From Candidatus Kapaibacterium sp. (GTDB lineage: Bacteria > Bacteroidota > Ignavibacteria > Kapaibacteriales > UBA2268), in NCBI GenBank assembly GCA_026418625.1, contig JAOABA010000022.1:10572-74571 (forward strand): DNA of 64,000 bases. The letters are read 5' to 3'. This document shows, piece after piece, positions 888 to 64,000 of the stretch (position 1 is its first letter; the number at the start of each line of letters is the position of its first letter). The position numbers and the translations under genes are program-made. A model generated the notes under the pieces. It made no database searches. It was given only the letters and a program-made list of their open reading frames with translations, and was not told the origin of the DNA.

Positions 888-1319
888 ATGACAGTCTTAT
901 TTTCAAAGAAGTGCGAATTAGCTTTACAATCAGTTCTTTACCTATCAATTCTACCAAAAGGCACAATCGAAAGTGCTGACAATATTTCTAAACAAATAAA
1001 AGCTCCCAGAGAATTCGTTTCTAAGATTCTTCAATCACTTACAGATGTTGATATCATCAAGTCCAAAAAAGGAAAATTTGGAGGCTTTTCCTTAGCGAAG
1101 GATCCTAAGGAAATAAAATTGATTGATATCATCACTGCAATTGATGGCGATTATGTCTTTGATAGTTGTGTGATGGGTTTTCCCGGCTGTTCAGATGAAA
1201 ATCCCTGCCCGATGCACGAAAAGTGGGCAAAACTAAGAGAAGAATCCCTCCAAATGCTTAGCACAAACACTTTAGCAGATTTATACGAGATTACAAAAAG
1301 AAAAATTGAAAAAATATAA
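888..1319 (+). CDS. Rrf2-family transcriptional regulator, NsrR/IscR-like, with a Cys cluster suggesting an Fe-S sensor.
   Basis: 143 aa with an N-terminal wHTH typical of Rrf2 (KCELALQSVLYLS...ISKQIKAPREFVSKILQSL). Three closely spaced Cys (CVMGFPGCSDENPCP). It lies immediately upstream of nrfHA. Confidence 0.75.
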   Translation: MTVLFSKKCELALQSVLYLSILPKGTIESADNISKQIKAPREFVSKILQSLTDVDIIKSKKGKFGGFSLAKDPKEIKLIDIITAIDGDYVFDSCVMGFPGCSDENPCPMHEKWAKLREESLQMLSTNTLADLYEITKRKIEKI

Positions 1320-1394
1320 TTTTTTTGTTTTTTTTAAGACAAAAAATTCCGATATTAGCTTTTGTATTTTTCAATTATTCATAGCTTTTTTTCT

Positions 1395-1973
1395 ATGAGT
1401 GAAAATGAGAGAAAAGGTTCTAAATTCAAAATTGCATTTATCGTTTTACTCGGAATTGCAGTTGGTTTAGGACTTGTAATAGTCAGAGTTTCAAACGCAA
1501 TATCTTACCTATCAGATGACCCCGTTGCTTGTGTTAATTGCCATATTATGACTCCCCAATATGCAACTTGGTTCCATAGTAGCCACCGTGAGCGGGCAAC
1601 TTGCAATGACTGTCACGTTCCGCATAACAACATAGTAAGAAAATATTGGTTCAAAGCAAATGACGGATTCCGACATGCATCAATATTTACTTTAAGGCTC
1701 GATCCTCAGGTTATCCAAATAAAAGATGATGGCAAGACAGTTGTGCAGGAAAATTGCATCAGATGTCATATTAATCAGGTCAATGATGTTTCATCATCCT
1801 ACGTTACAGGTCGAACATACAAAGAAGGAAAGGGAAATCTTTGCTGGGACTGTCATAGAAATGTGCCTCACGGAACAGTTCACAGCCAGGCATCAACTCC
1901 TTATGCCAGAGTCCCGAGACTGCATCCCGCTATTCCAGAATGGTTGAATATTAATAAAAATGAAAATAAATAA
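1395..1973 (+). CDS. nrfH: Cytochrome c nitrite reductase small subunit NrfH (NapC/NirT tetraheme quinol dehydrogenase).
   Basis: Four CxxCH motifs (CVNCH, CNDCH, CIRCH, CWDCH) and an N-terminal TM helix. The ORF-track start at 1362 is probably over-extended; the Met at MSENERKG (1395) is the likely start. Confidence 0.85.
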   Translation: MSENERKGSKFKIAFIVLLGIAVGLGLVIVRVSNAISYLSDDPVACVNCHIMTPQYATWFHSSHRERATCNDCHVPHNNIVRKYWFKANDGFRHASIFTLRLDPQVIQIKDDGKTVVQENCIRCHINQVNDVSSSYVTGRTYKEGKGNLCWDCHRNVPHGTVHSQASTPYARVPRLHPAIPEWLNINKNENK

Positions 1974-1983
1974 GAGGTTTATT

Positions 1984-3465
1984 ATGAGTGAAAAAACAAG
2001 CACTGGAAAAAAAATTTTTTATATCGTTTTATTTCTTGCAACAGTCGTTATTGTATTCATATTAGGTTTACTTGCAGCTTCGATTTTCGAAAGGAGAGGT
2101 GAATCGGTAGCTCGTCTTGAACCCGTTAAAGAAATTGCCGAATGGGAACCAAGGAATGAGGTTTGGGGTGAAAATTACCCACGTGAATACGAAACATATA
2201 GAAAAACGCTTGACACAGGTTTTCGAAGCAAATATGCCGGCTCGGCTACCATAGATTACTTAGAAGATTATCCTGATTTAGTTGTTCTTTGGGCTGGTTA
2301 TCTGTTTTCAAGAGATTTCAAGCAAGCCCGTGGTCATGCTTATGCTATTAAAGATATCCGTCAAACGTTAAGAACTGGCGGGGTTGAATTCAGTCCTCAA
2401 CCCGGCACTTGTTGGTCCTGCAAAAGCACTGATGTTCCAAGGCTAATTCAATCAATGGGCGCCGAAGCCTTTTATAAATCCAAGTGGTCTGATTTGGGCG
2501 ATCAGGTCGTCAATCCAATCGGATGTCAAGACTGCCACGACCCCAAAACAATGGATTTAAGAATTACCAGACCTGCCTTGATTGAAGCTCTCGAAAGGCA
2601 GGGCAAAAAAATGAAAGATATTACACATCAAGAGATGCGATCGCTTGTTTGTGCACAATGTCACGTGGAATATTATTTCAAAGGTCCTGATAAATATTTG
2701 ACTTTTCCGTGGGACAAAGGCTTTAGTGCTGATTCAATGGAGTCATATTATAATGAAATTGCTTTCAAGGATTGGGAACATAAGCTCAGCAAAGCACCAA
2801 TGCTCAAAGCTCAACATCCCGATTATGAGTTGTATATGACCGGTATTCACGCTGCAAGGGGTGTTTCCTGTGCTGATTGTCATATGCCTTATAAAGTCGA
2901 AGGTGGGGTCAAATTTACTGATCATCACATTCAAAGCCCTCTAAATAATATTGCTAACTCCTGTCAGGTATGCCACAGACAAAGCGAAACACAATTACTT
3001 AAAGATGTTTATGACCGTCAGGATAGAGTAGCTGAAATTAGAAAAATAGCTGAATACTCATTGAGAAAAGCACATCTTGAAGCTGAATTAGCTTGGAAAA
3101 ATGAAGCAAGTGAAGATGAGATGAAACCTATACTTGAACTAATTAGGTCAGCTCAATGGAGATGGGATTGGGTCGCTGCTGCTAATTCAGTTGGATTTCA
3201 CTCACCTGTAGAAGCTCTCAGGGTTCTTGGCACTGCTATTGAGAGATCCGAAAAAGCTCGTGGTTTGCTAAATGTTGTATTTACAAAAAGAGGTGTAAGT
3301 TTACCCGTAACTCTGCCGGATGTCGGAACTAAGCTGATAGCTCAAAAATATATCGGACTCGATATTGAAAAGATTTTGCAGGATAAGCTTAATTTCTTGC
3401 AGACTGTTGTTCCTGAATGGGACAAGAAAGCTAAGTCCCGTCAAGGAACTTTGCAGGAATATTAG
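1984..3465 (+). CDS. nrfA: Cytochrome c552 nitrite reductase catalytic subunit NrfA (pentaheme, ammonia-forming).
   Basis: CWSCK (the Lys-ligated active-site heme motif diagnostic of NrfA) plus four CxxCH (CQDCH, CAQCH, CADCH, CQVCH). A signal/TM segment is at the N-terminus. AAGAGG RBS 7 nt before the ATG at 1984; the track start at 1960 overlaps nrfH. Confidence 0.9.
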   Translation: MSEKTSTGKKIFYIVLFLATVVIVFILGLLAASIFERRGESVARLEPVKEIAEWEPRNEVWGENYPREYETYRKTLDTGFRSKYAGSATIDYLEDYPDLVVLWAGYLFSRDFKQARGHAYAIKDIRQTLRTGGVEFSPQPGTCWSCKSTDVPRLIQSMGAEAFYKSKWSDLGDQVVNPIGCQDCHDPKTMDLRITRPALIEALERQGKKMKDITHQEMRSLVCAQCHVEYYFKGPDKYLTFPWDKGFSADSMESYYNEIAFKDWEHKLSKAPMLKAQHPDYELYMTGIHAARGVSCADCHMPYKVEGGVKFTDHHIQSPLNNIANSCQVCHRQSETQLLKDVYDRQDRVAEIRKIAEYSLRKAHLEAELAWKNEASEDEMKPILELIRSAQWRWDWVAAANSVGFHSPVEALRVLGTAIERSEKARGLLNVVFTKRGVSLPVTLPDVGTKLIAQKYIGLDIEKILQDKLNFLQTVVPEWDKKAKSRQGTLQEY

Positions 3466-18522: not shown

Positions 18523-18711
18523 TTAAAAAATAAACCCAATAGCTTTTGTTACAAGCCAATCAATTAAGTAAGTGAAAACAGTAAATATAAGAGTTGCAAC
18601 CACGACGACAACTGTGGACTCCCTCAATTGTTCTTTTGTGGGCCAAGAAACTTTTTTCATTTCTTTTGCAACATCACTGAAAAAGTTTTTTATTTTTTCA
18701 ATCATAATCAA
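18523..18711 (-). CDS. secE: Preprotein translocase subunit SecE.
   Basis: 62 aa with a single C-terminal TM helix, at the conserved tRNA-Trp/secE/nusG position. Confidence 0.8.
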   Translation of the reverse strand: MIMIEKIKNFFSDVAKEMKKVSWPTKEQLRESTVVVVVATLIFTVFTYLIDWLVTKAIGFIF

Positions 18712-18725
18712 TCCTTTAGAATACT

Positions 18726-18800
18726 TGCACGGGTGGAAGGACTTGAACCCTCAGCCTACGGTTTTGGAGACCGCCGCTCTGCCAATTGAGCTACACCCGT
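18726..18800 (-). tRNA. tRNA-Trp (anticodon CCA).
   Basis: Hand-folded cloverleaf: acceptor ACGGGTG/CACCCGT, anticodon loop CTCCAAA, T-loop GGTTCAAGTCC. Confidence 0.8.
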
Positions 18801-18806
18801 AAAATC

Positions 18807-18881
<75 letters not shown>

Positions 18882-18885
18882 AGAG

Positions 18886-18960
18886 CGGAGCGGGAAACGG
18901 GGTTCGAACCCGCGACCCTCAGCTTGGGAAGCTGATGCTCTACCAGCTGAGCTACTCCCG
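18886..18960 (-). tRNA. tRNA-Gly (anticodon CCC).
   Basis: GCGGGAGTAGCTCAGCTGGTAGAGC...anticodon loop TTCCCAA...GGTTCGAACC. Confidence 0.8.
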
Positions 18961-18992
18961 CTTTTCAAAAACACACCATTATAAACAACTTG

Positions 18993-19065
18993 AGCGGGAG
19001 ACGAGGCTCGAACCCGCGACCCTCAGCTTGGAAGGCTGATGCTCTACCAACTGAGCTACTCCCGC
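18993..19065 (-). tRNA. tRNA-Gly (anticodon TCC).
   Basis: GCGGGAGTAGCTCAGTTGGTAGAGC...anticodon loop CTTCCAA...GGTTCGAGCC. Confidence 0.8.
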
Positions 19066-19079
19066 ATTTTTTCTCTTTG

Positions 19080-19163
19080 TGGGCAGGGAAGGATTCGAAC
19101 CTCCGTAGGGCTGAGCCCAGCAGATTTACAGTCTGCCCCGTTTAACCGCTTCGGTACCTACCC
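19080..19163 (-). tRNA. tRNA-Tyr (anticodon GTA), with a long variable arm.
   Basis: GGGTAGGTACCGAAGCGGTTAAACGGG...anticodon loop CTGTAAA...variable arm GGGCTCAGCCCTAC...GGTTCGAATCC. Confidence 0.8.
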
Positions 19164-19231: not shown

Positions 19232-21346
19232 TTAAACAGTTATTACATTTTGTATATCTACTTCGGTATCGGCTGGTATTTCTGTGTAACTAATAACGCT
19301 AACCATCGGATATTGATTATGTATCATTTTGTAAAAATATGGACGTATTTGTGCTGAACAAATTACTATTGGTAGGTATCCTGTCATTGTTATATCATCA
19401 ATTGCTTCTGAAAGACTATCGTAAATTTTCTTTATCGTTTCAGGTGATAAACCTAACGTAGGACTCGAAGTAGCTTGACTGCCAGATTGAAGTGCATTTG
19501 TCATTATTTGCTCTAATTGTGGGTCTAATGAAATTGCATGTATTACTCCGTTTTGGTCTTGATATAATTTCTTTATTGTTTCCGATAAGTTATGTCTTAC
19601 AAATTCTGTAAGAACATCTATATTTTTTGTTACTTTATAATACTCAAGCAACGCTTCCAAAATTAGTGGAAGATCCCTAATTGGTATTCCCTCCCTTAAC
19701 AAATTCTGCAAAACTTTTTGAATTGTTGCTATTGGTAATGTATCCGGATTGATTTCTTCGACTAAAGCAGGATAATCTGACTTAAGATTCTCGATTAAAT
19801 GCTTTATATCCTGTCGTGTTAGCAATTTATCTGCATTTCTTCTTATCAATTCCGTAAGATGAGTAATCAAAACAGTGGCAGCCTCGACTACCGTAAATCC
19901 CATTATTTCAGCATTTTCTCTGTCAGCGTTCGAAATCCAAGTGGCAGGCAACCCAAAAACAGGCTCTGTAACTTTTATACCCCGAATTTCACCTTCGGCG
20001 GTGCCGGAATTCATTGCCAGTAGCATATTTGGATGTAAAACATTCCTTGATATTTCAATTCCCCGAATTTTTATTACATATTCTTCGGGTTCTAATTGCA
20101 GATTATCTCTTACTCTTACCGGTGGCAATATAATTCCTAATTCTACCGCTAATTGTTTCCTGACGTTTGCTATTCTTTTGAATACATCGCCACCTTGAGT
20201 TTCATCAACTAATGCAATAAGACTGTATCCCAGTTCAATTTCAACTGGGTCAACTTTTAGCAGGTCTTCTACAGGTGCTTCTTCGGGTTTAGTAGCAACC
20301 TCTGCTTCTGTCATTTCTTTGACTAATTTTTCCTGTTCTTCTTTCTTTATGCTTTTTGTTCTGATATATGCTAATCCACCGACAATTGATGATAAAATCA
20401 GAAAAGGAATTGTTGGAAAGCCCGGTATAAAACCCATCAAAAACATAGCTGCAGAAGATATCCAAATAGCTCTCGGTTTTGCACCAAATTGTTTTCCTAA
20501 TTCAATGTCGAGTTTTTCAGATGATGATGAACGAGTAACAACCAAGCCACCTGCAACCGAAATCAAGAGCGAAGGTATCTGAGAAACTAATCCATCGCCG
20601 ATTGTCAAAATTGTGTAAGTGGAAAGAGCGTGTGTTATATCCATTCCTCTCTGTGTCATTCCGATTATAAAGCCGCCTATTATATTAATACCCGTAATTA
20701 TTAGTGCAGCTATAGCATCACCTTTAATAAATTTAGCAGCACCATCCATTGCTCCATAAAAATCTGCCTCTTTGGATAGGCTATCCCTTCTTCTTCGGGC
20801 TTCTATCTCGTCAATATAACCTGCGTTCAAGTCAGCATCAATGCTCATTTGCTTACCCGGAAGCGCATCGAGAGTAAACCTTGCAGCAACCTCAGCAATT
20901 CTGGTTGAACCTTTGATAACAACTATGAAATTTATTACAAGTAAAATTAGAAATATAATTATACCAACAACATAATTCCCACGAATAACAAATGTTCCAA
21001 AAGCATTGATTATTTCACCTGCGTGACCATCACTAAGTATTAATCTTGTTGCAGCAACGTTCAAACCTAATCTGTAAAGTGTTGCAATTAACAAAATCGT
21101 TGGAAATGAAGAAAATTCAAGTGGGCTTAACAAATATATGGCTACCACCAAAATTAATATTGACATTGCAAGATCAACCGCAATCAATAAGTCCAGCAAA
21201 AATGGAGGCAAGGGTAGCACAAGAAGTGTTAAAATTAGTAATACTCCACCCGCTAAGAGAATATCTGGACTTTTTGATAAAGAAGATAAAAAATCTCCTT
21301 TGTTTTTAGTTTCGCCAGTCAAATATAATTGTTTATTATTAGCCAA
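19232..21346 (-). CDS. flhA: Flagellar biosynthesis protein FlhA (export gate).
   Basis: 704 aa with N-terminal polytopic TM region and a C-terminal cytoplasmic domain; FHIPEP family signature. Confidence 0.92.
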   Translation of the reverse strand: MANNKQLYLTGETKNKGDFLSSLSKSPDILLAGGVLLILTLLVLPLPPFLLDLLIAVDLAMSILILVVAIYLLSPLEFSSFPTILLIATLYRLGLNVAATRLILSDGHAGEIINAFGTFVIRGNYVVGIIIFLILLVINFIVVIKGSTRIAEVAARFTLDALPGKQMSIDADLNAGYIDEIEARRRRDSLSKEADFYGAMDGAAKFIKGDAIAALIITGINIIGGFIIGMTQRGMDITHALSTYTILTIGDGLVSQIPSLLISVAGGLVVTRSSSSEKLDIELGKQFGAKPRAIWISSAAMFLMGFIPGFPTIPFLILSSIVGGLAYIRTKSIKKEEQEKLVKEMTEAEVATKPEEAPVEDLLKVDPVEIELGYSLIALVDETQGGDVFKRIANVRKQLAVELGIILPPVRVRDNLQLEPEEYVIKIRGIEISRNVLHPNMLLAMNSGTAEGEIRGIKVTEPVFGLPATWISNADRENAEIMGFTVVEAATVLITHLTELIRRNADKLLTRQDIKHLIENLKSDYPALVEEINPDTLPIATIQKVLQNLLREGIPIRDLPLILEALLEYYKVTKNIDVLTEFVRHNLSETIKKLYQDQNGVIHAISLDPQLEQIMTNALQSGSQATSSPTLGLSPETIKKIYDSLSEAIDDITMTGYLPIVICSAQIRPYFYKMIHNQYPMVSVISYTEIPADTEVDIQNVITV

Positions 21347-21372
21347 TTTCTTTTTAAAAATTATTCTTCTGT

Positions 21373-22497
21373 TTAATTATTATTTCTGTAAATATTTGTC
21401 CAATTTGCCCGATTTCTTTTGTCTTTTCGCTTTAATTGATATACATAAGCCAGAACTTGGGCAACTGCTTTAAACAAATTTTCCGGTATTTCCATATCAA
21501 CATCGGTAGAAAAGAACAAAGCCCGTGCCAACGGTGGTTGTTCCACAATTGGTATTAAATTTTCCTCAGCTATTTGCCTGATTTGTGCTGCCAGATAATC
21601 GGCTCCTTTTGCTACAACAACAGGGGCGCTCATTTTGGCTGAATCATAAGCAAGTGCAACAGCATAGTGTGTTGGGTTAGTGATTACTACATCTGCCGTT
21701 TTCACATTCTTTAACATCAGCTTTCTAATTCTCGACCTCATTATTGAGCGAAGTCTGGCTTTCACTCTTGGGTCACCCTCTGCTTGTTTGTTTTCTTCCT
21801 TAACTTCTTGTTTTGTCATTTTTAAATCTTCTTTATAGCGGTATCTTTGATAAAGCATATCAGCAACAGCTATCAAAATATAAACTGCTCCAACCTTTGC
21901 TACAACCTCTAAACTCACCGAAGCAAGAAAAGCTCCTATCTCTGATATTGGTTTCTCTATTAAATCAATTGTCTCTTGGACCTTGTCTTCGAGAATATCA
22001 TAGACAACAAACCCAAGAATAAAAATCTTAATTAGGCTTTTTGTCAATTCAAAAACTGACCGTCCTGAAAAAAATATTTTTTTTAAACCTGATAATGGAT
22101 TAAATATCCTTTTAAAATTCAACCCTTCAGTAAATTTTTTTGTGGCTATATGTAAACCAGTTTGTGATATTTCTGCGATAAGAACTATTAAAAAGATTAA
22201 AGAAACAATTGGTAGAATTAACTTTATAAAAAAAAGAATAAACTTAAAATAGTAAGCTGAAATATTCTGAGTTGTCAATTCAATGTTGGTTGATTCAATG
22301 AAAATAATTCGCATAAATTTTTGGATGTCTGCCATCATAGGAGAACCCATCAAAAAGACAATAACACCACCAACAAGCAGAACGGCTGCAGTTGTAACAT
22401 CCATACTTTTTGCTGTTTGTCCGCGAGCACGAGCTTCTCTTATACGCTTCGCACTCGCCGGTTCAGTTTTTTCCTGACCATCTTTGTTTTCTGCCAT
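21373..22497 (-). CDS. flhB: Flagellar biosynthesis protein FlhB.
   Basis: 374 aa with the NPTH autocleavage motif (VVITNPTHYAVAL). Confidence 0.9.
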   Translation of the reverse strand: MAENKDGQEKTEPASAKRIREARARGQTAKSMDVTTAAVLLVGGVIVFLMGSPMMADIQKFMRIIFIESTNIELTTQNISAYYFKFILFFIKLILPIVSLIFLIVLIAEISQTGLHIATKKFTEGLNFKRIFNPLSGLKKIFFSGRSVFELTKSLIKIFILGFVVYDILEDKVQETIDLIEKPISEIGAFLASVSLEVVAKVGAVYILIAVADMLYQRYRYKEDLKMTKQEVKEENKQAEGDPRVKARLRSIMRSRIRKLMLKNVKTADVVITNPTHYAVALAYDSAKMSAPVVVAKGADYLAAQIRQIAEENLIPIVEQPPLARALFFSTDVDMEIPENLFKAVAQVLAYVYQLKRKDKRNRANWTNIYRNNN

Positions 22498-22501
22498 CTT
22501 T

Positions 22502-23299
22502 TTAGACTTTCCCTTTTCCCAAAGACATTATTATTTTCATTGTTTCATCCTGAAATAATTCAAGTGAATTTTTTGCTACCATTATTAATATTGGTGTTGA
22601 TATTAAAAGAACAAGTAATCCAACAGCAATTTTAAGCTGAAAACTCATTACGAATATATTTGTTTGAGGAGCTATTCTTGCCAATAATGCTAAAACCAAA
22701 TTAGTTAAGAAGAGTGCAACAAGGATAGGAGCGGAAATTTTCACACCTATAATAATGACACTTGTTGCAATCTTTATCATCAAATCTTTTGCTGACAATG
22801 AGAATTCAAGTGTTGTCAATGGAATTATATCAAGACTTGCATTTAGGCTTTCAATCAAATAATGATGCCCATTAAGTAATAAAAATAAAACAAGCGTTGC
22901 CATTTCGAATAGGTTCCCAACCAAGGTTGGAGAATCATCACCCATATTAAACATAGCAGCGGCTTGGTAACCCATATCAAAATCAATAATACCACCTGCA
23001 AGTTTAGCACCCCAAAAAACTAAATTTGCAGTATAACCAATGATAAATCCAATAAACATTTCCTTCATAACAAGAAACACCAAATTCCACAGGTGAAAAT
23101 CAATCTGAGGTTGGCTTTCCCAATGAGTTGCCGTTAATGTAAATGCAAGTATGAATGATATAATAATTTTTAACTGAATATTAATAGCCATACTTTTGAA
23201 AAAAGGGGCTGAAATAAATAATCCTGTTATTCTGACAAAGATTAGCAGACCAATGATAAATTTTCCTGTTAAAAAATATATATCACTTGAATTTATCAT
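22502..23299 (-). CDS. fliR: Flagellar biosynthetic protein FliR.
   Basis: 265-aa polytopic membrane protein sitting between fliQ and flhB. Confidence 0.85.
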   Translation of the reverse strand: MINSSDIYFLTGKFIIGLLIFVRITGLFISAPFFKSMAINIQLKIIISFILAFTLTATHWESQPQIDFHLWNLVFLVMKEMFIGFIIGYTANLVFWGAKLAGGIIDFDMGYQAAAMFNMGDDSPTLVGNLFEMATLVLFLLLNGHHYLIESLNASLDIIPLTTLEFSLSAKDLMIKIATSVIIIGVKISAPILVALFLTNLVLALLARIAPQTNIFVMSFQLKIAVGLLVLLISTPILIMVAKNSLELFQDETMKIIMSLGKGKV

Positions 23300-23562
23300 T
23301 TAAGCGTGGGAATCATTTTTATGATTTCAATTGCGAAAGTTTTGATATTGCTGAGCATAAAGGGAAGAAATAATACACTCATCAAAAATACTACTAATAG
23401 CTTGGGGACAAATGTCAATGTCTGTTCCGAGATTGATGTTGCGGCTTGAAAAATTGATATTAATAAGCCTATTACCAAGGATGCTAAAAGAAGTGGTCCG
23501 CAAATAAGAATAACATAATAAAAGGCATCTCTAACTAATTGTATAACCATTTGGTCTGTCAT
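23296..23562 (-). CDS. fliQ: Flagellar biosynthetic protein FliQ.
   Basis: 88 aa, two TM helices. It overlaps fliR by 4 nt, consistent with translational coupling. Confidence 0.85.
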   Translation of the reverse strand: MTDQMVIQLVRDAFYYVILICGPLLLASLVIGLLISIFQAATSISEQTLTFVPKLLVVFLMSVLFLPFMLSNIKTFAIEIIKMIPTLK

Positions 23563-23577
23563 ATTCTTTCCTTTTTT

Positions 23578-24354
23578 TTACCTTAAAATACTTTGCATTA
23601 GGGATTCAATCACTAAATACCAGCCATCAACTAATATAAATAAGAGCAGTTTTATAGGCAATGATATCAATTGCGGAGGCAAGAGAAACATTCCGAGCGA
23701 CATCAGCACACTCGCTATCACCATATCCAGAACAAGGAATGGAACGAATAGCAAAAATCCAATCTGAAATGCCATCTTTAATTCACTTATTGAATAAGCA
23801 GGTATGATTGTCCAAATTGATACTTCACTTATATCGGCTGGTTTATCTTTTCCGCTTAACTTGATAAAAAGCCTTAAATCTTCTTCCCTTGTATGCTTAA
23901 GCATAAAATCCCTGAAGGGCTGAACTATATTATCAACAGCCTGAGTTTGATTTATTTCTTCTCTTATATAGGGTTGAAGCCCTCTTTCGTTTGCCTGATC
24001 CAGAACCGGCTGCATAACAAAAAATGTAAGAAATAGGGCTAAACCGGATAAAAGTTGATTTGGTGGTTGCGTCTGAGTCCCAAGTGCCTGCCTTAAAAAG
24101 TGAAAAACTACAATTATTCTGGTAAAGCAGGTCATCATTATCAAAATTGATGGTGCAAGAGTCAAAACGGTAATAACAGCAAGAATCTGCAAATTCAACG
24201 CTAAATCATCGCTTTTATCTGAATTGTTTACATTTATTGAAACAGTTGGTAAGGTCAGATTATTAGTTTGGGGTGCCTGAGCAAATCCTTTGCCCAGAGA
24301 CCCCAAGAATAGAACAGTAATCAAGAACAGACCTGCGATAATTCCTTTTATCAT
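23578..24354 (-). CDS. fliP: Flagellar biosynthetic protein FliP.
   Basis: 258 aa with a signal peptide and conserved FliP core (FTRIIVVFHFLRQALG). Confidence 0.88.
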   Translation of the reverse strand: MIKGIIAGLFLITVLFLGSLGKGFAQAPQTNNLTLPTVSINVNNSDKSDDLALNLQILAVITVLTLAPSILIMMTCFTRIIVVFHFLRQALGTQTQPPNQLLSGLALFLTFFVMQPVLDQANERGLQPYIREEINQTQAVDNIVQPFRDFMLKHTREEDLRLFIKLSGKDKPADISEVSIWTIIPAYSISELKMAFQIGFLLFVPFLVLDMVIASVLMSLGMFLLPPQLISLPIKLLLFILVDGWYLVIESLMQSILR

Positions 24355-24393
24355 TCTCCTAATCCATTAGTTTTTTGTCCGAAATCACTTATT

Positions 24394-24409
24394 ACAATAG
24401 CTGTGCCAA
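24394..24409 (-). promoter_or_regulatory. Candidate sigma-54-type promoter (-24 GG / -12 GT) upstream of fliP.
   Basis: Minus strand TTGGCACAGCTATTGT, about 45 nt upstream of the fliP ATG. It matches TGGCAC-N5-TTGC except that GC is replaced by GT at -12. Confidence 0.3.
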
Positions 24410-24548
24410 AGTAAAAATCATTTCTCTGATTTTTTTATTCTATGATTTTATGTTCTTTTAAATCATATATTTAAAGGTATTCGAGGAAGGAAATAATTTT
24501 TTTAGGTTTAATCTGTTGATGAAATCTAATTTGCCACAAAAAAATAAA

Positions 24549-24566
24549 TTGTTCATTATTGAACAA
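24549..24566. promoter_or_regulatory. Perfect 18-bp palindrome in the divergent fliP / repeat-protein intergenic region; candidate operator.
   Basis: TTGTTCA-TTAT-TGAACAA, read directly from the sequence. Confidence 0.35.
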
Positions 24567-24716
24567 TTGTCTAAAAAGTTTATTGGATAAAAAAAACACA
24601 AGATTTACAGAATTTATCATATTATATCATTTTTTTTGTAATAGAAAATTAAATACATTATTTTATTTGACTTGAAAAATTAAATCATTGAAAAATATTT
24701 AAGTTGGAGAATAACA

Positions 24717-27062
24717 ATGGCACTAAAATCAGAGATTGAGAATCTGGAAGTAAATTGCAAAACTGCTATCGAGTTAATTAATCTTGCTCTTAAAGCACTC
24801 GAAGAACCCACAGACAAGGAATATGCAGCTCATCTGCTCGAGAAAGCCGAAAACCTTTGCTCGGTTCCAATTGATTACATCAGACTCGCCGAAGCTTATA
24901 TAATTGGTTTCGACGATAAAGATAAAGCTGATGAATTTTATGAAGAAGCCGAAGATAATTGTTTCGAGGCTATTGAATCAGCTGAACTCGGTCATAGTAT
25001 TGCAAAATACCTTGGTGACAAAGACAGAGCCAAAGAATTTTTGAACTCGGCAGCGAAAGATGCCAAAAAACCTGCTGAAATACTGACAATCATCTCTTAT
25101 GTCAAATCTGACCTGAGCGATGATGCCTTGGCAAAAGAACTGATGACAAAAATTGAAGCACAATGCAAAACACTTGATGATTATAAATCTCTGGCAAAAA
25201 GCATTATTGCTGATACTAATGATAAACAATCCGCTAAAGAATTGCTCAAAAAAGCAGAAAGCAAAGTAAACGGAATCGCAGACTACGTCAAATTCTGCGA
25301 AATTATCAATGAATTATTAGAAGATAAAGAATGGATTAATGACATACTTGAGGAAAATTCCGAAGATGCTCAATTTACAAAAGATTTCACACTTTTAGCT
25401 ACAGCATATAAAAATTTCTGTGCTGATGATGATAAAGCAAAGGAAATGCTTGATTCAGCAAAAGATTATGCAATGAAAGGTGATGAATTCATTGATCTTG
25501 CCTTTACATTCTGGAATTTATATCAAGACAAAGATTTGGCAAGTCAGTTCTTCGAAAAAGGATTGAACGATCTAAATGATACTGCCAAATTGCTCGAAAT
25601 TGCTGGACTAATTGCCAAAGATATAAAGGATGAAAACCTTGCCAAAAAGTTCTTCAAAAAAGCTGAATCCAAGATGACCTCTGCAAAAGACCTTAGCAAT
25701 TTAGCTAAAGTGGTAATTAATGACCTAAACGACAAAGAATATGCAAAGGATATCTATTCAAGAGCAACTGAAAGCATTGATGATCCTAAGGAACTCATAA
25801 GATTAGCTGATGAACTAATCTCGGCAATCGGCGATAAGGAAATGGCTAATTCTATTTATCAAAAAGCTTTCGAAAAAGCTGAAAAACTTGATATTTTGCT
25901 CGAAATTGTTGATGAATCTGCCAAAAATGACGGAAGCAAAGAATTTATTCGAAATGTCATTCAAAAAGCTGAAAATTTAGCGAATGGCAGTCCTGAACTA
26001 ATTCTTGTAGGTCAAAAAATTCTGAAAGCACTTGGTGACAAAGACTATGCTGCAAAAGTTCTTACTAATGCCGAAGAAATTGTTACAAGCCTAAAAGAAT
26101 TGAAGGATGTCTCAGTTGTAGTAAACGAAAATTTCGCTGACAAAAAAGAATGGATTGATAGAATAAACGTAAAAATACAGAAAAGAGAAGAAAATCAGGC
26201 TAAGTATGATGAATACCAAAAGCTTGAAAATGATGCTAAATTACTAAAGGACTACCTGAACCTTGTTGATGATTTAATGGCAACTCTCGATGATCCTTAC
26301 TATGCTAAGAAACTTCTTGGTAAAGCAGAGAACTTGCTGAATAATGAACAATTCAATATTGATAATTACGAAAAACTTATAGTTTCAATCAAAAAACATC
26401 TGAATGATACTAACTGGATTTTCAATATTTTAAATCATATTCTTCAAAACAGAGTTAAATTCGTTTTTGATTATCTCAATCTAATTGATATTACATTAAA
26501 ACATATAACAGATGAACCATCAGCGAAAAAATTAGCTGAGGAAATACTAAAGAAAGCCGAAAATGTCATTGATAATTCTGATAAAAAACTTGCTTATGAC
26601 TATTTCAAATTAGCCAAAATAGCTTATGAAAAATTGAATAATACTAATTGGGCTTTGGATTTATTAGCCAAAGCTGAAAAGTGCGATTTAGATCCTTATG
26701 CCTATGTTAATATTGGAAATCTCGAACTTAAGCTCAATAAACAGGATATTGCACAGACGAATTTCGATAAGGCTATTTCGAATTGCAAGTCATCTGCAGA
26801 AATTGTGAATTTAATCTCATTCCTTAAAACAATTAACGATGATAATAACTTGCTTGTTAATCTTTATTTGAAGGGCAAAAACAACCTCAATCAGCTTAAT
26901 GAAATGATTACTTGGGCTGAAGGATTTGTTGATTTGTTTGGTGATAAAAACAGAAGCGAAAAGATTTATAGCGATATCCTTAATCAAGCAAGAAACAAAG
27001 AAGAGAAAGAACTTGTAAACCTCAGCCGAAAACAAAAATTAGAAGGAGAATATTGGGAATAA
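24717..27062 (+). CDS. Large cytoplasmic solenoid protein made of about 20 copies of a 34-aa repeat (TPR length, non-canonical consensus DK[DE]xAKxxLxKAE...D[YL]xxLA). Function unknown.
   Basis: 781 aa with no signal peptide. Manual alignment of the units (e.g. DKEYAAHLLEKAENLCSVPIDYIRLAEAYIIGFD, DKDKADEFYEEAEDNCFEAIESAELGHSIAKYLG). GGAGA RBS before the ATG. Confidence 0.7.
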   Translation: MALKSEIENLEVNCKTAIELINLALKALEEPTDKEYAAHLLEKAENLCSVPIDYIRLAEAYIIGFDDKDKADEFYEEAEDNCFEAIESAELGHSIAKYLGDKDRAKEFLNSAAKDAKKPAEILTIISYVKSDLSDDALAKELMTKIEAQCKTLDDYKSLAKSIIADTNDKQSAKELLKKAESKVNGIADYVKFCEIINELLEDKEWINDILEENSEDAQFTKDFTLLATAYKNFCADDDKAKEMLDSAKDYAMKGDEFIDLAFTFWNLYQDKDLASQFFEKGLNDLNDTAKLLEIAGLIAKDIKDENLAKKFFKKAESKMTSAKDLSNLAKVVINDLNDKEYAKDIYSRATESIDDPKELIRLADELISAIGDKEMANSIYQKAFEKAEKLDILLEIVDESAKNDGSKEFIRNVIQKAENLANGSPELILVGQKILKALGDKDYAAKVLTNAEEIVTSLKELKDVSVVVNENFADKKEWIDRINVKIQKREENQAKYDEYQKLENDAKLLKDYLNLVDDLMATLDDPYYAKKLLGKAENLLNNEQFNIDNYEKLIVSIKKHLNDTNWIFNILNHILQNRVKFVFDYLNLIDITLKHITDEPSAKKLAEEILKKAENVIDNSDKKLAYDYFKLAKIAYEKLNNTNWALDLLAKAEKCDLDPYAYVNIGNLELKLNKQDIAQTNFDKAISNCKSSAEIVNLISFLKTINDDNNLLVNLYLKGKNNLNQLNEMITWAEGFVDLFGDKNRSEKIYSDILNQARNKEEKELVNLSRKQKLEGEYWE

Positions 27063-27273: not shown

Positions 27274-28164
27274 TTAAATCAATCCGGCATTTTGCATTGC
27301 TTTTTTGAATATATCTTTGTTTTTCTTAGTCATTTCGAGCAATGGCAAACGATAAACAGGGTCAATTTTTTTCATCAAAGCTAAAGCATATTTGACTGGT
27401 ATAGGATTGGATTCGATGAAATTCAATTCCATCAGTTCCATCAATTCGTAATGAATTTTACGAGCTTTGTCGAATATTCCGTTCATTGCATTTTTGACCA
27501 TTTCGCTGAATTGCTTAGGTGCATAATTGCTAATAACCGAAACGACACCTTTTCCTCCGAAAGCAATTATCGGGAGAGTGAAAATATCATCACCAGAAAG
27601 CAAATTGAAGCCTTCGGGAGCATCTTTGATAATCTTCATCATTTGCTCAAAATTCCCAGAGGCTTCCTTAGTAGCCACAATATTTTTGCAGGTTTTAGCC
27701 AATTTTAACTGAGTTTCCGCAGAAATATTAACTCCCGTCCTACCGGGAACATTATAAATGATAACTGGAATATCAACATTATCCGCTACTAATTTAAAAT
27801 GCTCATATAATCCATCCTGAGTGGGTTTGTTGTAGTAGGGAGCAACAAGCAATAAACCTGTAACACCTAAATTGAATGCTATAGTAGAAAGATTCAGAGT
27901 GCCTTCGGTTTCATTACTGCCGGTGCCTGCGATAATCGGAATTTTCCCTCCAGCATATTCAATTGATTTTTTGAAGATTGCAATTTTATCATTAATTGTT
28001 AAAGTAGCACTTTCGCCTGTTGAACCACAAACAACGATTGCATCAACACCACCTTGAATCTGAAATTCAATTAAATCTTTTAGTGCTTCAAAATCTACTG
28101 CGCCACCTTTTTGAAATGGAGTTACAAGGGCTGTTATTGTTCCCTGCGGTATATATTTTTTCAT
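27274..28164 (-). CDS. dapA: 4-hydroxy-tetrahydrodipicolinate synthase.
   Basis: 296 aa; TALVTPF...GGVDAIVVCGSTGESATLT motif and an active-site Lys region. Confidence 0.88.
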   Translation of the reverse strand: MKKYIPQGTITALVTPFQKGGAVDFEALKDLIEFQIQGGVDAIVVCGSTGESATLTINDKIAIFKKSIEYAGGKIPIIAGTGSNETEGTLNLSTIAFNLGVTGLLLVAPYYNKPTQDGLYEHFKLVADNVDIPVIIYNVPGRTGVNISAETQLKLAKTCKNIVATKEASGNFEQMMKIIKDAPEGFNLLSGDDIFTLPIIAFGGKGVVSVISNYAPKQFSEMVKNAMNGIFDKARKIHYELMELMELNFIESNPIPVKYALALMKKIDPVYRLPLLEMTKKNKDIFKKAMQNAGLI

Positions 28165-29012: not shown

Positions 29013-31463
29013 ATGAGAAAATTAGTTTGTTTGCTTTTTATATTGACATTATTCCAAACTTCCACAGTTCTCTCTGAGTGGGAGCATAAGTTCAACGCTG
29101 TAAACGAACAATGCTATGTTGAACTCGATGGTAAGCTCTATCGGGGCTTTACAAATGGCCTTTCTATATATCACTTAAAAAAGAATCAAGAAAAGTTTTA
29201 CACTATGCTAAATTCGGATTTACCCGGTAATTATGTAAATTCAATGATATTGCTGGAAGATAAATCAATCTTAGTTAGCACCGATAAAGGTCTTGCTGTG
29301 ATTGAAAATGGAGTGATTACAACTAACAAACCAATTTGCACAACTTACCCTGATAATGACTCAAGAAAATTGTATTTAGATGAGTTTTCTAATATCTGGA
29401 CTTTTTCAGCTCAAAAGGTTCATTTATTCAAGGATAATGAATGGAAAACATTTGATTTAAGCACACAGAACATCCCTTTTCCTTTTGAAATTCTTGAATT
29501 ATTTGTTGATGGTGATAGTGTTTTGGCAATGTTTCATAACCAGCTAAAATCAGGCACTTCTTATTATTATAACACTAATTCAGATTTATATCTCTCGATA
29601 GCCATAATAAACGAAAACGGTATTTCTTACCTTTGGCTGGATAATCAAACATTCCCCTATAGACAAGGGGGTTATAGTCTTATCAGATCTGGTGATGAAC
29701 TTTGGTTTCAAAATTATAATGCAATATTTAAGTATAAAAATGATAGATGGGATAGCCTCAAAGTATTCAACTTCGGTAATTATAAGCCTTATTTCAGCAC
29801 ACAATCATTTTTTAAAGATAAATTCGGCAGGGTTTGGACTATTTTGGAAGATACCCTCAAAAAAATTCGATTACCAGCTTCCTACGACCCAAGCACTAAT
29901 AAAGTAAAAGTTTATCTTGAAAATGAAAAAGAGAGTTTCTACTATATTTCTGTCCTGAGTAATGACAATTTGATGATTTGGAATCACTCAACAATGGTCT
30001 TGTATGATATTGAAACCGACACTTGGAAGAAATCTTCATCAGTATCATTAGGAATTCCTGAAAACTGTCTGTTCTTTAAGCCAAGAATACTTAATGGAAA
30101 AATTTATGTTTTTCTATCGGTTATTTATCAAAATTATTCTTATGATTATACATTCTATGGTAACTTATTCTGTATAGAAGATAAAACGGTAATACCAAAA
30201 TTATTTAATGAATTACCCTATTCCTCTCTGGTTCAATGCGCAATTAACAAAAAAGGTCAGGGACTGTTTAAAGGAAGATTTGTAGGGGAGGAACTGAAAG
30301 TTCAGACTTCATCTGGTTTTGTTCAGCAACGCTTTTATTCAAATGTATTTCCAGTAGTAGCATTACCAGACGGTAATATTTATTTTAGCAAATTTACTAT
30401 TGATAGGAAAAATATTTATTCGACCATCGCAACTTGGGATGATTCAGATTTGGTCCAAATTGATATGGGATTCAAGGATAAAAATGCTGATTTAAGCGAT
30501 ATTGATTATTATCAAGATAATATAATTACAATGGGCACTTATTATTATGACCCAAAACAGGATTCTGCTACAACTTGTATTTCAATTTATAACACTAAAA
30601 CAAAAAAATTAAATAAATATGACAAATTTAACTCAGGTTTGCCTGATTATTATTTTGAAAAGGTTGATATTATTTGGTTTGTTCAGGATACGGTTCCTAA
30701 AAGTATCAGTGTTGATGATGCTGGAAATGTCTGGCTTATGACCTCAATGAGCCTTATAAAATTCAAAGATGGAAAAGTTAATATTTTTGATTTGCCAAAG
30801 AACTCAGATGGAAGCCCATTATCAATTCCAAAAATTTTCTTTGATGGCAATTCAAAGCAACTCATTGCTTATTTCGAATCTTTTGAACCACATAATTATT
30901 ATACTTATAGAGCTAAATTTTATTTCTTTGATACATTTTTTAACCAATGGGATAGCACTGATATAAAAGGTGCCGGAATTATTGGTAAATTAGTTCGTAT
31001 GAAAAAGCTGCTTGATGGTAATGTCTGGGCTTGCGATAATTTAGGCTACTTTTATAAATATTCTGGCGATGGAAAGTTCAAAATTTTCGACTTAAGAATA
31101 AATAACCGACCAAACCTTGGATTTCAAATAAACGATTTTTCGATGGATGTAAACGGTTATTTACATTTAGCTACTGATATTGGTTTGCTTTCTAACAAAT
31201 CAATTTTGCTGAATGTTGAGGAAAATGACAAATTTTCAAACGAACTGAAAGTTTACCCAAATCCCTTTAACGATAAAATTAACATTGAATTACCTAATGA
31301 TGATATTATCCAATTTGAATTGATTGATATTTTCGGCAGAAGGATAATTAAATCCTATGGAACAAATTATTTAAATACCGAGACAATCTCAGCAGGATTA
31401 TATATTTTAAAAGTTCAAAACTCGAATAATCAGTCGAAATCAATAAAAGTAATAAAATATTGA
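29013..31463 (+). CDS. Secreted hypothetical protein with beta-propeller-like repeats and a T9SS C-terminal sorting domain.
   Basis: Signal peptide MRKLVCLLFILTLFQTSTVLS. The C-terminal ~75 aa (LKVYPNPFNDKINIELPND...GLYILKVQNSNNQSKSIKVIKY) are a typical Por_Secre_tail. Confidence 0.65.
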   Translation: MRKLVCLLFILTLFQTSTVLSEWEHKFNAVNEQCYVELDGKLYRGFTNGLSIYHLKKNQEKFYTMLNSDLPGNYVNSMILLEDKSILVSTDKGLAVIENGVITTNKPICTTYPDNDSRKLYLDEFSNIWTFSAQKVHLFKDNEWKTFDLSTQNIPFPFEILELFVDGDSVLAMFHNQLKSGTSYYYNTNSDLYLSIAIINENGISYLWLDNQTFPYRQGGYSLIRSGDELWFQNYNAIFKYKNDRWDSLKVFNFGNYKPYFSTQSFFKDKFGRVWTILEDTLKKIRLPASYDPSTNKVKVYLENEKESFYYISVLSNDNLMIWNHSTMVLYDIETDTWKKSSSVSLGIPENCLFFKPRILNGKIYVFLSVIYQNYSYDYTFYGNLFCIEDKTVIPKLFNELPYSSLVQCAINKKGQGLFKGRFVGEELKVQTSSGFVQQRFYSNVFPVVALPDGNIYFSKFTIDRKNIYSTIATWDDSDLVQIDMGFKDKNADLSDIDYYQDNIITMGTYYYDPKQDSATTCISIYNTKTKKLNKYDKFNSGLPDYYFEKVDIIWFVQDTVPKSISVDDAGNVWLMTSMSLIKFKDGKVNIFDLPKNSDGSPLSIPKIFFDGNSKQLIAYFESFEPHNYYTYRAKFYFFDTFFNQWDSTDIKGAGIIGKLVRMKKLLDGNVWACDNLGYFYKYSGDGKFKIFDLRINNRPNLGFQINDFSMDVNGYLHLATDIGLLSNKSILLNVEENDKFSNELKVYPNPFNDKINIELPNDDIIQFELIDIFGRRIIKSYGTNYLNTETISAGLYILKVQNSNNQSKSIKVIKY

Positions 31464-60684: not shown

Positions 60685-63600
60685 TTAGTTCAATAATCTG
60701 ATTACTTTCTTTGTAATAATTTGATTATTCGGAAAATAGAATCTTATAATAAACAGACCTTCCTGCGAGGAATAGTCAGCTAAATCAATTTTTGCGAACT
60801 CGTCAGAAATAACCTTTGACCCGAGTTTTTCACCGAGCAGATTATAAATTTCTACCAAATATTCGCCCTGATAATTACTTACTAAATTTATGACACCACT
60901 CGTTGGATTTGGTGAAATGTTAAAATTATCAATTATCAATTCATTTCTGACTGATGCGAATGTTACATTAAATTCCTCAGAAAATTCAGATAAACAGGAC
61001 CCGATTTTAACACGGACAGAATACAAACCGTTCGTTTTTGGTTCATAATATTGTTCTGTCGCATCGGGAATAATTTGCTTATCCAAATACCATTGATTTC
61101 CTATTGGTGAACTTGATTTCAATCTGTCATCGTCAACTGTTATAATAGGTTTTTCTGGTGTTGAGGCAACATCAATATCTTGGAAAATGATCTTCTTGCA
61201 ATTTGTAGTTGTATTCGTCTGGGTAACATAAACTTTCCCGTTTCCTTGAGTAATCCATTTTACCTCAATTTGATGACCTATTGAATCACCGATTATCTCT
61301 CCGCCTACAACCCTCCATTCACTTGTTAGATTTTTATCATTATAAGTTGTATAAGTTTCCGTTGAATTTTCGCAAGTTCTGGCATTGCCCGATATAAAGG
61401 GATCTGGAATTGAATTAACTACTACCTCATATTCTGAGGAATCCATACAACCCGATTGATTAATGAAAACTACTTTAACGGTTCCCTTTCCTGTCTGATT
61501 CCAAACAACCAACGCACTGTCGCTATTTATCTGTTTCTTAATAGTTCCACCTTTTATAGACCATTGCTTTGTGATTTTACCTGTAGTTTTTTCGACAGAG
61601 TATATATTTTCGCTATTCAGACAAGTTGATTTCTCACCTGATATTTTCGTAGCAACTGGTGCTTCATTGATTGTGATGTCCCTTTCAAGCAACGTAAAGC
61701 AACCTGTCTCGTTGATGGTTTGCTTTAATCTCAATTTTCCTTTTCCTTTGCTGCCCCAAAGTATTTTCACCATTTCCTGATTAAGAATTGAGTGAACCTT
61801 TCCTCCCTCGACTTCCCAATCATTCTTATTTCCAGCAACTATTGGTGAACGATAGATGAAATAGCTGTTTTCACAAACAGCCAAATCGCCAATTATTGTT
61901 GGATTTGGAACGGGATTAATTGAAACCTCCAAAATTGTAGTATCGGTGCAACCTGAAGCACTTGATTTGGCAAGTCTTATTATTCCTGTTCTGCTTGTAT
62001 CATCCCATTTAATCTGGACATTTGGGGATTTCGTATCGCCAATTAATTCTCCACCTTTAATAACCTTCCAAGTATTAATTATCCCATTTTCTACTGTGGT
62101 AAAATATGGTTCTATCGTTCCTGAGCAAACAACACTTTTGCCTGATATATAAGGATAAAGCTTAGCAGTTATTACTAAATCCTGACCGTTATCAAATCCA
62201 GTTGTTGAGGGATTCGAAGCAATAATTCTGATTCTGTATTTAGAACCTGAGGCAATATTTACTGGGATTAAAGCTGTAATCGTTCCTGATGTTGTTGATG
62301 TTAGGCTCCCTATTTGGATTTGGTTGTTAAATTTTCCAAGACTGTCAGAAAGATAAGCCCTGAAGACATTCCCATCATTAAAAGTGATTCCAGCAGTAAA
62401 ATCAATCTGAATGTAATTTCCGGCACATAATTTACCATTTATTGCAGTTATAATAATCGTTCCAGTAGTAGTAAATGAAAAAACTGATGACCATCCTGTT
62501 TGACCTTGGGCAGTCGTTGCTCTTACCCTCCAGTAATACCTTGTATTGTTTGATAAATCGGACGAAGGTGTGAAAGATGTTCCTGTCAGTCCAGTTTGAT
62601 TTATTACAAGATTTGAAAAACTTGAAACATCAGACACCTGAATTTCATAGGAAGTAGCCCCAGTAAAAGTATTCCAAGTGAAAGTCGGTCTTAAACCAAG
62701 ATTCGTTGAATTATCAGCAGGACTAATAAGAACAGGAACTGAAATTGTATCAAAGCCAACATAAAAAGTGATTGTATTTCCCGAAGAACCAATCTCTGAA
62801 ATATTTAAATATCCGGCAGAACCGTTCGAAAGAAAAGCTGATGGATTTGTGAAATTATTTATCTGGGTTCTACTGACATCGCTCGAAAAATTTGCACTGT
62901 TAACGGTGCCGTTGTTAGTTGTTGTTCCATTTGGTCTATAAACATAAACTTCATCGGGTGGTCCATTAGCATTTCCCTGACCACTATAGGAATTATTAAT
63001 CCTATAAACTATTAAACCGCTTCCGGGAAGGGAATTCTCGAAAGTTCCTGTTTTCCTTCTATATTCCACAACAAAATATTCTGTGGTAGAAACAGGTGAT
63101 TTTATTTTGTAAGCATTATTTGTTGAGCTTGTTAAAGGGCTTAATGTATAATAACCGGATGTGGTAATCTCTGGGATGCTTGCTATCCAACCAGCATATC
63201 TGAATTTCATATATGCACACATATGTTGAGGTGGACTCAAATTATTTTCCATCAAATCCCAAGGACCAACCGGACTAATTCCATTGCTTGTATAGTGATA
63301 TAAATCGGGAGCACCGAGGGAATGGAACATCTCGTGGCAAAGAACACTATTATTGGTCATACTTCGAATTTGGAAATTATAGGTATAGACCCTTTTCTCG
63401 TTTATAGTTACTGTAAGGCTGTAAAGTGACCACATATGGGGCCATAGAAGACTTGCCCAAGCATCGGGTGTTCCCGAAACAATGAAACAAACATTATCAA
63501 CATATCCGTCATTATCGCCATCAATATTCAATGATGTAGGTATCTGAGATTTAATTGCATTTACTGCATTTGCGAGTAACGTATGCTCCCTGTCCCTGCG

Positions 63601-64000
63601 TTGGGTTGAATTCTGATAACCAATCGGATTTGTATTCGCATCATAGGGACGATAATAATTTCTGGGTTGAGTTGCCTGATAAGATATTACCGTTGATCCA
63701 TTTGTTTCGGGATAAAAATATGTTTGAATTGACAGACTATTATAAGATGCCTCACGAAAATAATTCTTCATTGAATTACCGCTTTCAGCGTTAAACATAC
63801 TTTCGTAAGTCGAACGCTGGTCAGTAAATTCGCTTTCGTCCGAAAACCTTATGAAAATCACTATATTATTGATGGTCCCTGTTTTTGGTGTCTGGACTCT
63901 ATCCCTTTTTGAATCATCAATTGGTTTATATCTATATTCAAGGAATTCATCTACTCGAGGTTTAATATACTCGTAAGAAAATTTAAGCCACGGTTTCAAT
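60685..64000 (-). CDS. Large T9SS-secreted zinc metalloprotease (HExxH, M6/immune-inhibitor-A-like) with Fn3 and repeated beta-sandwich domains. The 5' end lies outside the window.
   Basis: The ORF runs to the window edge (the first codon is TTG, so it is truncated). HEMFH zincin motif. Fn3-like segment (PVLISPADNSTNLGLRPTFTWN...YEIQVSD). At least four ~90-aa Cys-containing repeats. C-terminal Por_Secre_tail (ISPNPTSGVINLVS...LFIIRFYF). Confidence 0.7.
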   Translation of the reverse strand, partial: LKPWLKFSYEYIKPRVDEFLEYRYKPIDDSKRDRVQTPKTGTINNIVIFIRFSDESEFTDQRSTYESMFNAESGNSMKNYFREASYNSLSIQTYFYPETNGSTVISYQATQPRNYYRPYDANTNPIGYQNSTQRRDREHTLLANAVNAIKSQIPTSLNIDGDNDGYVDNVCFIVSGTPDAWASLLWPHMWSLYSLTVTINEKRVYTYNFQIRSMTNNSVLCHEMFHSLGAPDLYHYTSNGISPVGPWDLMENNLSPPQHMCAYMKFRYAGWIASIPEITTSGYYTLSPLTSSTNNAYKIKSPVSTTEYFVVEYRRKTGTFENSLPGSGLIVYRINNSYSGQGNANGPPDEVYVYRPNGTTTNNGTVNSANFSSDVSRTQINNFTNPSAFLSNGSAGYLNISEIGSSGNTITFYVGFDTISVPVLISPADNSTNLGLRPTFTWNTFTGATSYEIQVSDVSSFSNLVINQTGLTGTSFTPSSDLSNNTRYYWRVRATTAQGQTGWSSVFSFTTTGTIIITAINGKLCAGNYIQIDFTAGITFNDGNVFRAYLSDSLGKFNNQIQIGSLTSTTSGTITALIPVNIASGSKYRIRIIASNPSTTGFDNGQDLVITAKLYPYISGKSVVCSGTIEPYFTTVENGIINTWKVIKGGELIGDTKSPNVQIKWDDTSRTGIIRLAKSSASGCTDTTILEVSINPVPNPTIIGDLAVCENSYFIYRSPIVAGNKNDWEVEGGKVHSILNQEMVKILWGSKGKGKLRLKQTINETGCFTLLERDITINEAPVATKISGEKSTCLNSENIYSVEKTTGKITKQWSIKGGTIKKQINSDSALVVWNQTGKGTVKVVFINQSGCMDSSEYEVVVNSIPDPFISGNARTCENSTETYTTYNDKNLTSEWRVVGGEIIGDSIGHQIEVKWITQGNGKVYVTQTNTTTNCKKIIFQDIDVASTPEKPIITVDDDRLKSSSPIGNQWYLDKQIIPDATEQYYEPKTNGLYSVRVKIGSCLSEFSEEFNVTFASVRNELIIDNFNISPNPTSGVINLVSNYQGEYLVEIYNLLGEKLGSKVISDEFAKIDLADYSSQEGLFIIRFYFPNNQIITKKVIRLLN

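Follow-up and report, generated by a model that had tools for sequence, protein, structure and literature searches.

Long tetratricopeptide repeat (TPR) proteins such as CTR9, SKI3/TTC37, PRP6 and the TPR domain of OGT, together with the consensus-designed TPR (CTPR) proteins, consist of tandem 34-residue helix-turn-helix units that form a continuous all-helical solenoid. We analyzed a gene whose product shares this architecture in Candidatus Kapaibacterium sp. (contig JAOABA010000022.1, positions 10,572 to 74,571; this whole stretch of 64,000 nt is referred to as the window). The open reading frame (ORF) spans 24717..27062 on the forward strand, from an ATG to the stop codon inclusive, and encodes a protein of 781 aa, exactly as delimited in an earlier interpretation made from the DNA alone (the sequence-only reading). 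Because profile and fold evidence agree on this placement, the protein belongs to the TPR superfamily (Pfam clan TPR, CL0020) as a divergent TPR protein. It differs from the known TPR solenoids by its own N-terminal cap, a central long-helix pair and the motifs AQFTKDF and AMxGxE, and by being a bacterial, predicted cytoplasmic protein of fixed length (~775 aa). The interpretation that we favor, with a probability of roughly 0.4, is that of a TPR scaffold serving a QmoAB-type redox module, with no flagellar function.

Repeat architecture and predicted fold

The protein is built on a period of 34 residues, as the sequence-only reading had noticed. Its BLOSUM62 autocorrelation was maximal at lag 34 (+0.26 versus -0.76 +/- 0.08 in shuffled sequences, ~13 standard deviations) and presented harmonics at lags 68, 102 and 136. 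An iterated hidden Markov model (HMM) of the repeat delineated 13 strong in-register units between residues 33 and 473 (25-39 bits each) and, in residues 500-760 and at the N-terminus, ~9 partial units with weaker scores. No 102-bp tandem repeat or periodicity was found in the DNA of the gene, which indicates that the repeats are ancient and rules out their recent amplification.

The sequence-only reading considered that the consensus of these repeats was not the TPR pattern. This does not hold, since the unit that it used starts at TPR helix B. When read 17 residues later, the repeat becomes [LYF]xxL[AG]xx[IVY]xxxLGDKxxAxxx[LYF]xKAE and broadly matches the TPR hallmarks at positions W4 (here [LYF]), L7, G8 (A/G), Y11 (I/V/Y), G15-D16, A20, F24 (L/F) and A27. 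Spacing and residue classes are retained within each helix, as [LYF]xxL[AG]xx[IVY] for helix A and Axxx[LYF]xxA for helix B. The original description of the repeat as non-canonical is only partly right, as the small and large residues typical of a TPR are present. Nevertheless, an additional residue in the A/B turn displaces helix B by +1 relative to helix A, the loop between repeats is shorter than in known TPRs, Pro32 is absent, and the protein scores below every Pfam TPR gathering threshold.

A direct search of the window protein against Pfam, NCBIfam and PDB sequences yielded no match above any threshold; its best Pfam scores were obtained for TPR_8 (13.3 bits, cut-off 25.7), TPR_1 (11.1) and TPR_MalT (16, cut-off 45). 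Within the family, 16 of 34 members matched TPR_8 at E<0.01 (best 5e-10), and TPR_14 and TPR_2 were matched by 10 and nine of them. We built a family repeat profile from 412 repeat units of these 34 members. Its HMM scored 11.5 bits per copy against a designed consensus TPR, with exactly this one-residue offset in the A/B turn as a gap in every copy. Among PDB sequences, the family profile matched best a consensus-designed TPR (E=7.8e-4), followed by PRP6, TTC8, TTC5 and OGT. Sel1-like repeats, whose units are of 36-44 residues, were ruled out: the period is exactly 34, and neither the window protein nor any of the 34 members has a Sel1 family among its Pfam matches.

The structure predicted by AlphaFold2 from the 34-sequence family alignment (mean predicted local distance difference test score 90.9, predicted TM-score 0.52) agrees with this assignment. 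It contains 45 helices arranged in ~22 hairpins, and DSSP assigned paired helices of 14-15 residues joined by turns of 2-3 residues. Thus, the estimate of about 20 repeat copies in the sequence-only reading stands by structure, whereas 13 copies are clear by sequence. Foldseek searches of the PDB retrieved the TPR and half-a-TPR (HAT) solenoids of CTR9, SKI3/TTC37, IFT-A TPR subunits, PRP6 and SYF1 with E-values of 1e-9 to 1e-5; the TM-scores to these solved solenoids were low (0.15-0.27), so that a match in superhelix geometry is not established. Both fold and profile searches returned TPR and other helical-repeat proteins only, with no specific functional homologue. In the model, then, the fold class is that of a TPR-type alpha-solenoid.

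The predicted solenoid is not uniform along its length (Table 1). The N-terminal cap contains Cys14, which 33 of 34 members share, and it also persists in the short forms of the family described below. The regular repeats carry the family signature motifs AQFTKDF (residues 218-224) and AMKGDE (residues 252-257), and the long-helix pair that follows them holds the invariant residues K486, R490, Y497 and E504. The sole marginal Pfam matches of the window protein, to TPR_8 and TPR_1, fall in the C-terminal array at residues 660-689. Conservation spans the full length of the family, with 16 invariant columns and peaks at the N-terminal cap and at residues 205-272, 307-323, 477-493 and 732-748.

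Four cysteines at residues 14, 48, 82 and 150 (nt 24756, 24858, 24960 and 25164) share the repeat phase 14+34k, and the equivalent positions 218 and 252 are occupied by Cys or Ala in relatives. The eight cysteines of the protein are scattered and mostly occupy this position of the repeat, which alternates with Ala and lies four residues after the alanine equivalent to A27 of the TPR, on the same helix face. The site is probably a buried packing position for small residues rather than a redox site. A redox or persulfide relay through the four phased cysteines was provisionally rejected: their position alternates with Ala, Leu or Ser in relatives, and three of them are missing from the short forms.

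The protein has a mass of 89 kDa, 12.8% Lys, 19.6% Asp plus Glu, a net charge of -42 and a pI of 4.77. We detected neither a hydrophobic N-terminus nor a transmembrane segment (the maximum of the Kyte-Doolittle 19-residue window is 1.15). The very acidic, Lys-rich composition and the lack of a signal peptide reported earlier are therefore correct, and the protein is predicted to be soluble and cytoplasmic.

Distribution of the family and linkage to qmoA-qmoB

A word-indexed search identified 39 homologues, nearly all of 774-784 aa and the best of them 47% identical. An exhaustive profile search returned 868 representatives with E<1e-3, of which 150 reached E<1e-30, and when one genome was taken for each of 185,579 species, 224 encoded a relative. 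This family is uncharacterized and conserved in length (~775 aa). A scan of metagenomes with the window protein alone as query gave no confirmed relative, whereas relatives were recovered with the family alignment. We judged taxonomy from the record titles of the 80 best relatives among the 224 genomes. These comprise Kapabacteria- or Ignavibacteria-like metagenome-assembled genomes (MAGs) and Gamma- or Betaproteobacteria, the latter mostly from sulfur-oxidizing groups (Thiocystis, Thiocapsa, Lamprocystis, Thiohalocapsa, Thiothrix, Thioalkalivibrio, Thiobacillus and Sulfuriferula). Several MAGs among L013-L042 whose locus is Kapabacteria-like, with type IX secretion proteins and Kapabacteria-type qmoAB, are titled 'uncultured Hyphomicrobiales bacterium'; such titles seem to be placeholders or mistaken assignments.

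In Thiobacillus and Hydrogenophilales the family is represented by a form of 608 aa without residues 33-202 (nt 24813-25322), a difference of 170 residues or exactly five 34-residue units. This alignment suggests that repeat number changed by whole units and that the first five repeats are dispensable in this clade.

A deep gene linkage was found within the phylum of the window. Sufficient upstream sequence was available for 16 Kapabacteria-like genome loci; in 12 of them, qmoA and qmoB lie immediately before the family gene in the same orientation, and this order was also found in additional metagenome contigs. The upstream pair encodes an HdrA-like flavoprotein of ~422 aa and a protein of ~740 aa with HdrA, 4Fe-4S and MvhD/FlpD domains, and the gap between the second gene and the TPR gene is of 3-90 bp in nine of 14 loci. 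JGI and NCBI annotate close homologues of the ~740-aa protein as QmoB, and a 58%-identical orthologue sits in a qmoA-qmoB-sat-aprB-aprA locus. The TPR proteins of these trios are 37-81% identical to each other (median 45%). The genes downstream of the trio differ in all loci and those upstream differ in most; with flanks this variable and a median identity of only 45%, the trio appears to have been kept beyond background synteny.

The locus just mentioned lies on an Ignavibacteriaceae contig (L093:1791-11319), where qmoA-qmoB-sat-aprB-aprA share one direction with two small genes and a gene for an Fe-S protein. By gene content, it would be a compact locus for dissimilatory APS (adenosine 5'-phosphosulfate) reductase in the phylum. 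Another genome (L094) carries qmoAB alone.

In the Kapabacteria-like gene order the TPR gene takes the slot of qmoC after qmoA-qmoB. Unlike QmoC, the TPR protein lacks both a transmembrane segment and cysteine clusters of the Fe-S type, and it therefore cannot replace QmoC as the membrane or redox subunit. A QmoC-like third subunit, with a membrane haem-b domain and Fe-S cysteine motifs, was thus ruled out. Related genomes carry qmoC together with sat-aprBA; in the related 'Ca. Thermonerobacter', qmoAB lies apart from sat-aprBA-hyp-hyp-qmoC (PMC6338057).

Our proposal of a QmoAB scaffold follows from two observations: the gene is the third of a qmoA-qmoB-TPR cluster in most relatives of its own phylum, and the proteobacterial members are mostly found in sulfur oxidizers. 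A non-catalytic scaffold function is proposed with high confidence by analogy with proteins of the same fold. The long acidic alpha-solenoid of ~22 divergent TPR hairpins would hold partner proteins along its superhelical groove. Comparative genomics points to a single partner, QmoA-QmoB, a flavoprotein/iron-sulfur module that belongs to dissimilatory sulfur metabolism, so that the TPR protein may tether or assemble QmoAB-type (HdrA-like) redox modules. A role with this module or in sulfur metabolism, although tentative, is the best available lead. In the lineage of the window, the gene would have been separated from qmoAB and moved beside fliP by a rearrangement: a rough neighbor-joining tree places this lineage within the qmoAB-linked clade, which suggests that the linkage was lost secondarily. 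A more specific version is rather unlikely. It would make the family a dedicated, hitherto unrecognized accessory subunit of QmoAB, the HdrA-like electron-transfer module, in dissimilatory sulfur metabolism, or a scaffold for its assembly. The family would be horizontally shared between Kapabacteria and sulfur-oxidizing Proteobacteria and would set the partner of soluble QmoAB (AprAB or another enzyme).

Several results weigh against a role with QmoAB. A tblastn search of the window with qmoA-like and qmoB-like proteins gave no match, and no sulfur-metabolism genes were found among its other genes, those annotated being housekeeping genes. No proteobacterial locus presented qmoAB within 10 kb. 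Most Chromatiaceae use AprM and their genomes are without qmo (PMC2211403), so a strict partnership with QmoAB cannot explain the whole distribution. Adjacency within a single phylum could also be partly inherited synteny. Finally, the tree is without support values, and the sulfur-oxidizer pattern is an impression from record titles rather than a statistical result.

Alternative readings of the function

It is about equally likely that the protein serves other clients, as a generic cytoplasmic TPR adaptor (for example a protein-assembly, quality-control or Fe-S protein maturation factor) unrelated to QmoAB and to flagella, in which case the adjacency to qmoAB would be inherited synteny. An unrelated cytoplasmic adaptor had been one option of the sequence-only reading, and our results support it. 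All-against-all clustering of ~1,400 ORFs from 92 loci identified no neighbor gene common across phyla and only clade-specific neighbors. The Thiobacillus and Hydrogenophilales short forms are always followed by a same-strand Sfum_1244/DUF6866 gene (15 genome loci; L073-L092, and L010:4827-5882), after which most Thiobacillus-type loci present a ChpA-like kinase of ~2,000 aa and PilJ. In Chromatiaceae, genes for SufE, an IscA-type protein and a Lon-substrate-binding-domain protein lie upstream. Other Gammaproteobacteria carry the family gene beside what appear, from sequence, to be genes for a poly(A) polymerase-type nucleotidyltransferase or for cytochrome oxidase assembly. The window copy itself, though apart from qmoAB, retains every invariant residue. 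Against a generic adaptor stands the persistence of the qmoA-qmoB-TPR trio at its low median identity amid shuffled flanks, which is more than passive synteny usually gives.

The sequence-only reading also raised the possibility of a flagellar assembly or regulatory scaffold; such a scaffold, or an export chaperone, would be co-regulated with fliPQR-flhBA through the divergent promoter region. The gene is indeed divergent from the flagellar export operon, with fliP across a 362-bp spacer and fliQ, fliR, flhB and flhA behind it. We searched ~170 fetched loci by tblastn with the FlhA, FlhB, FliR and FliP proteins of the window and with FliK and FlgD of contig L011. Synteny of fliPQR-flhBA with the family gene was found only in the window and in L013, L095 and L096, whose TPR proteins are 79-81% identical and whose FlhA is 95% identical to those of the window. 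These four genomes belong to one genus-level lineage and therefore represent a single event. None of the ~150 other loci presented flhA, flhB, fliR, fliP, fliK or flgD within 6-10 kb. On L011, a fliK-flgD operon lies upstream of qmoAB-TPR with a gene pair intervening. Across the four genomes the flanking flagellar proteins are 88-96% identical versus 79-81% for the TPR protein, which evolves clearly faster than its neighbors.

The class II type III secretion chaperones LcrH/SycD (TIGR02552) offer the closest comparison for such a role, being TPR-based and cytoplasmic like the window protein, which is encoded beside type III (flagellar) export genes. However, they are of ~160 aa with three TPRs, about a fifth of its length and with far fewer repeats than its ~22, and secretion genes are not conserved neighbors of the family. 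The NCBIfam match (E=1.1e-3, 18.7 bits) is far under the cut-off of 104.8 bits and reflects generic TPR similarity. Given the TPR placement and a linkage limited to three ~80%-identical relatives, a flagellar function is very improbable. These two outcomes are essentially those that the sequence-only reading had itself named as refuting its flagellar option, which they largely do; the adjacency to fliP is a lineage-specific accident of gene order, and a flagellar role is unsupported. That motility genes might be more broadly enriched around the family (fli genes for the lineage of the window, fliK/flgD on L011, CheB on L007, ChpA/PilJ in Thiobacillus) was likewise rejected, as these cases are clade-restricted and within a rough, uncomputed estimate of what chance would give in motile bacteria.

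A PilF/PilW-type role in type IV pilus biogenesis, as some JGI annotations of homologues have it, is the least probable of all: PilF/PilW are lipoproteins of ~250 aa with signal peptides, whereas the window protein is three times longer, has no signal peptide or lipobox, scores 24.4 bits against TIGR02521 (cut-off 154), and the family has no conserved pilus-gene context, with no pilus genes nearby outside the Thiobacillus clade.

The locus and its meaning

The features of the gene and of its surroundings are listed in Table 1. The GC content of the gene (33.2%) is in line with that of the whole window (34.8%). A scan of the locus for promoters and terminators gave no more matches than shuffled sequence; several weak sigma-70-like matches lie in the 362-bp spacer, with no excess over shuffled sequence.

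Table 1. Coordinates in the window of the TPR gene, its parts and its neighbors
Feature	Coordinates	Strand	Remarks
Complete TPR-type solenoid gene	24717..27062	+	Monocistronic; divergent from fliP, convergent with dapA
Ribosome-binding site GGAG (Shine-Dalgarno motif)	24706..24709	+	7 nt before the ATG; direct sequence reading
AT-rich divergent intergenic region, common to the gene and fliP	24355..24716	.	362 bp, 21% GC
N-terminal cap, aa 1-32, helices 4-11 and 17-27	24717..24812	+	Among the best conserved segments
13 regular 34-residue helix-hairpin repeats, aa 33-474	24813..26138	+	Repeat HMM and AlphaFold2
Atypical long-helix pair, aa 477-506, between both repeat arrays	26145..26234	+	AlphaFold2, conservation
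C-terminal array of seven degenerate TPR-like hairpins and capping helix, aa 510-776	26244..27044	+	AlphaFold2, HMM
Flagellar export genes flhA, flhB, fliR, fliQ, fliP	19232..24354	-	Context only; adjacency lineage-specific, outside the feature
fliP	23578..24354	-	Neighbor
dapA	27274..28164	-	Neighbor

Other parts of the window add to the description of the organism. Five tRNA genes (Trp, Thr, Gly-CCC, Gly-TCC and Tyr) and secE, the latter recognized by its sequence and its position before nusG, are found at 18523-19163 on the reverse strand. They sit between flhA and nusG-rplKAJ-(L7/L12)-rpoBC, so that the flagellar export operon abuts a block of core transcription and translation genes. At 888-3465 on the forward strand, the gene of an Rrf2-family regulator comes before those of a tetrahaem cytochrome of the NapC/NirT type and a cytochrome c552; the latter two, nrfH-nrfA-like genes, indicate a putative capacity for nitrite ammonification. 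The regions 12-818 and 29013-31463 encode large secreted proteins that carry Por_Secre_tail, a sorting domain of type IX secretion, which fits an organism of the Bacteroidota/Ignavibacteria type; the region 60685-63999 encodes a protein with PKD and Ig-like domains.

The protein is of an ordinary kind, a long TPR protein and most likely a scaffold, from an uncharacterized family. A useful further result is the definition of this family, for which neither Pfam nor NCBIfam has a dedicated model. The flagellar reading rests on lineage-specific gene order and should stay out of the annotation. The family has a single deep gene linkage, with qmoA-qmoB, and is hosted mostly by bacteria of the sulfur cycle; it constitutes a testable candidate for connecting soluble QmoAB to its partners where qmoC is encoded elsewhere.

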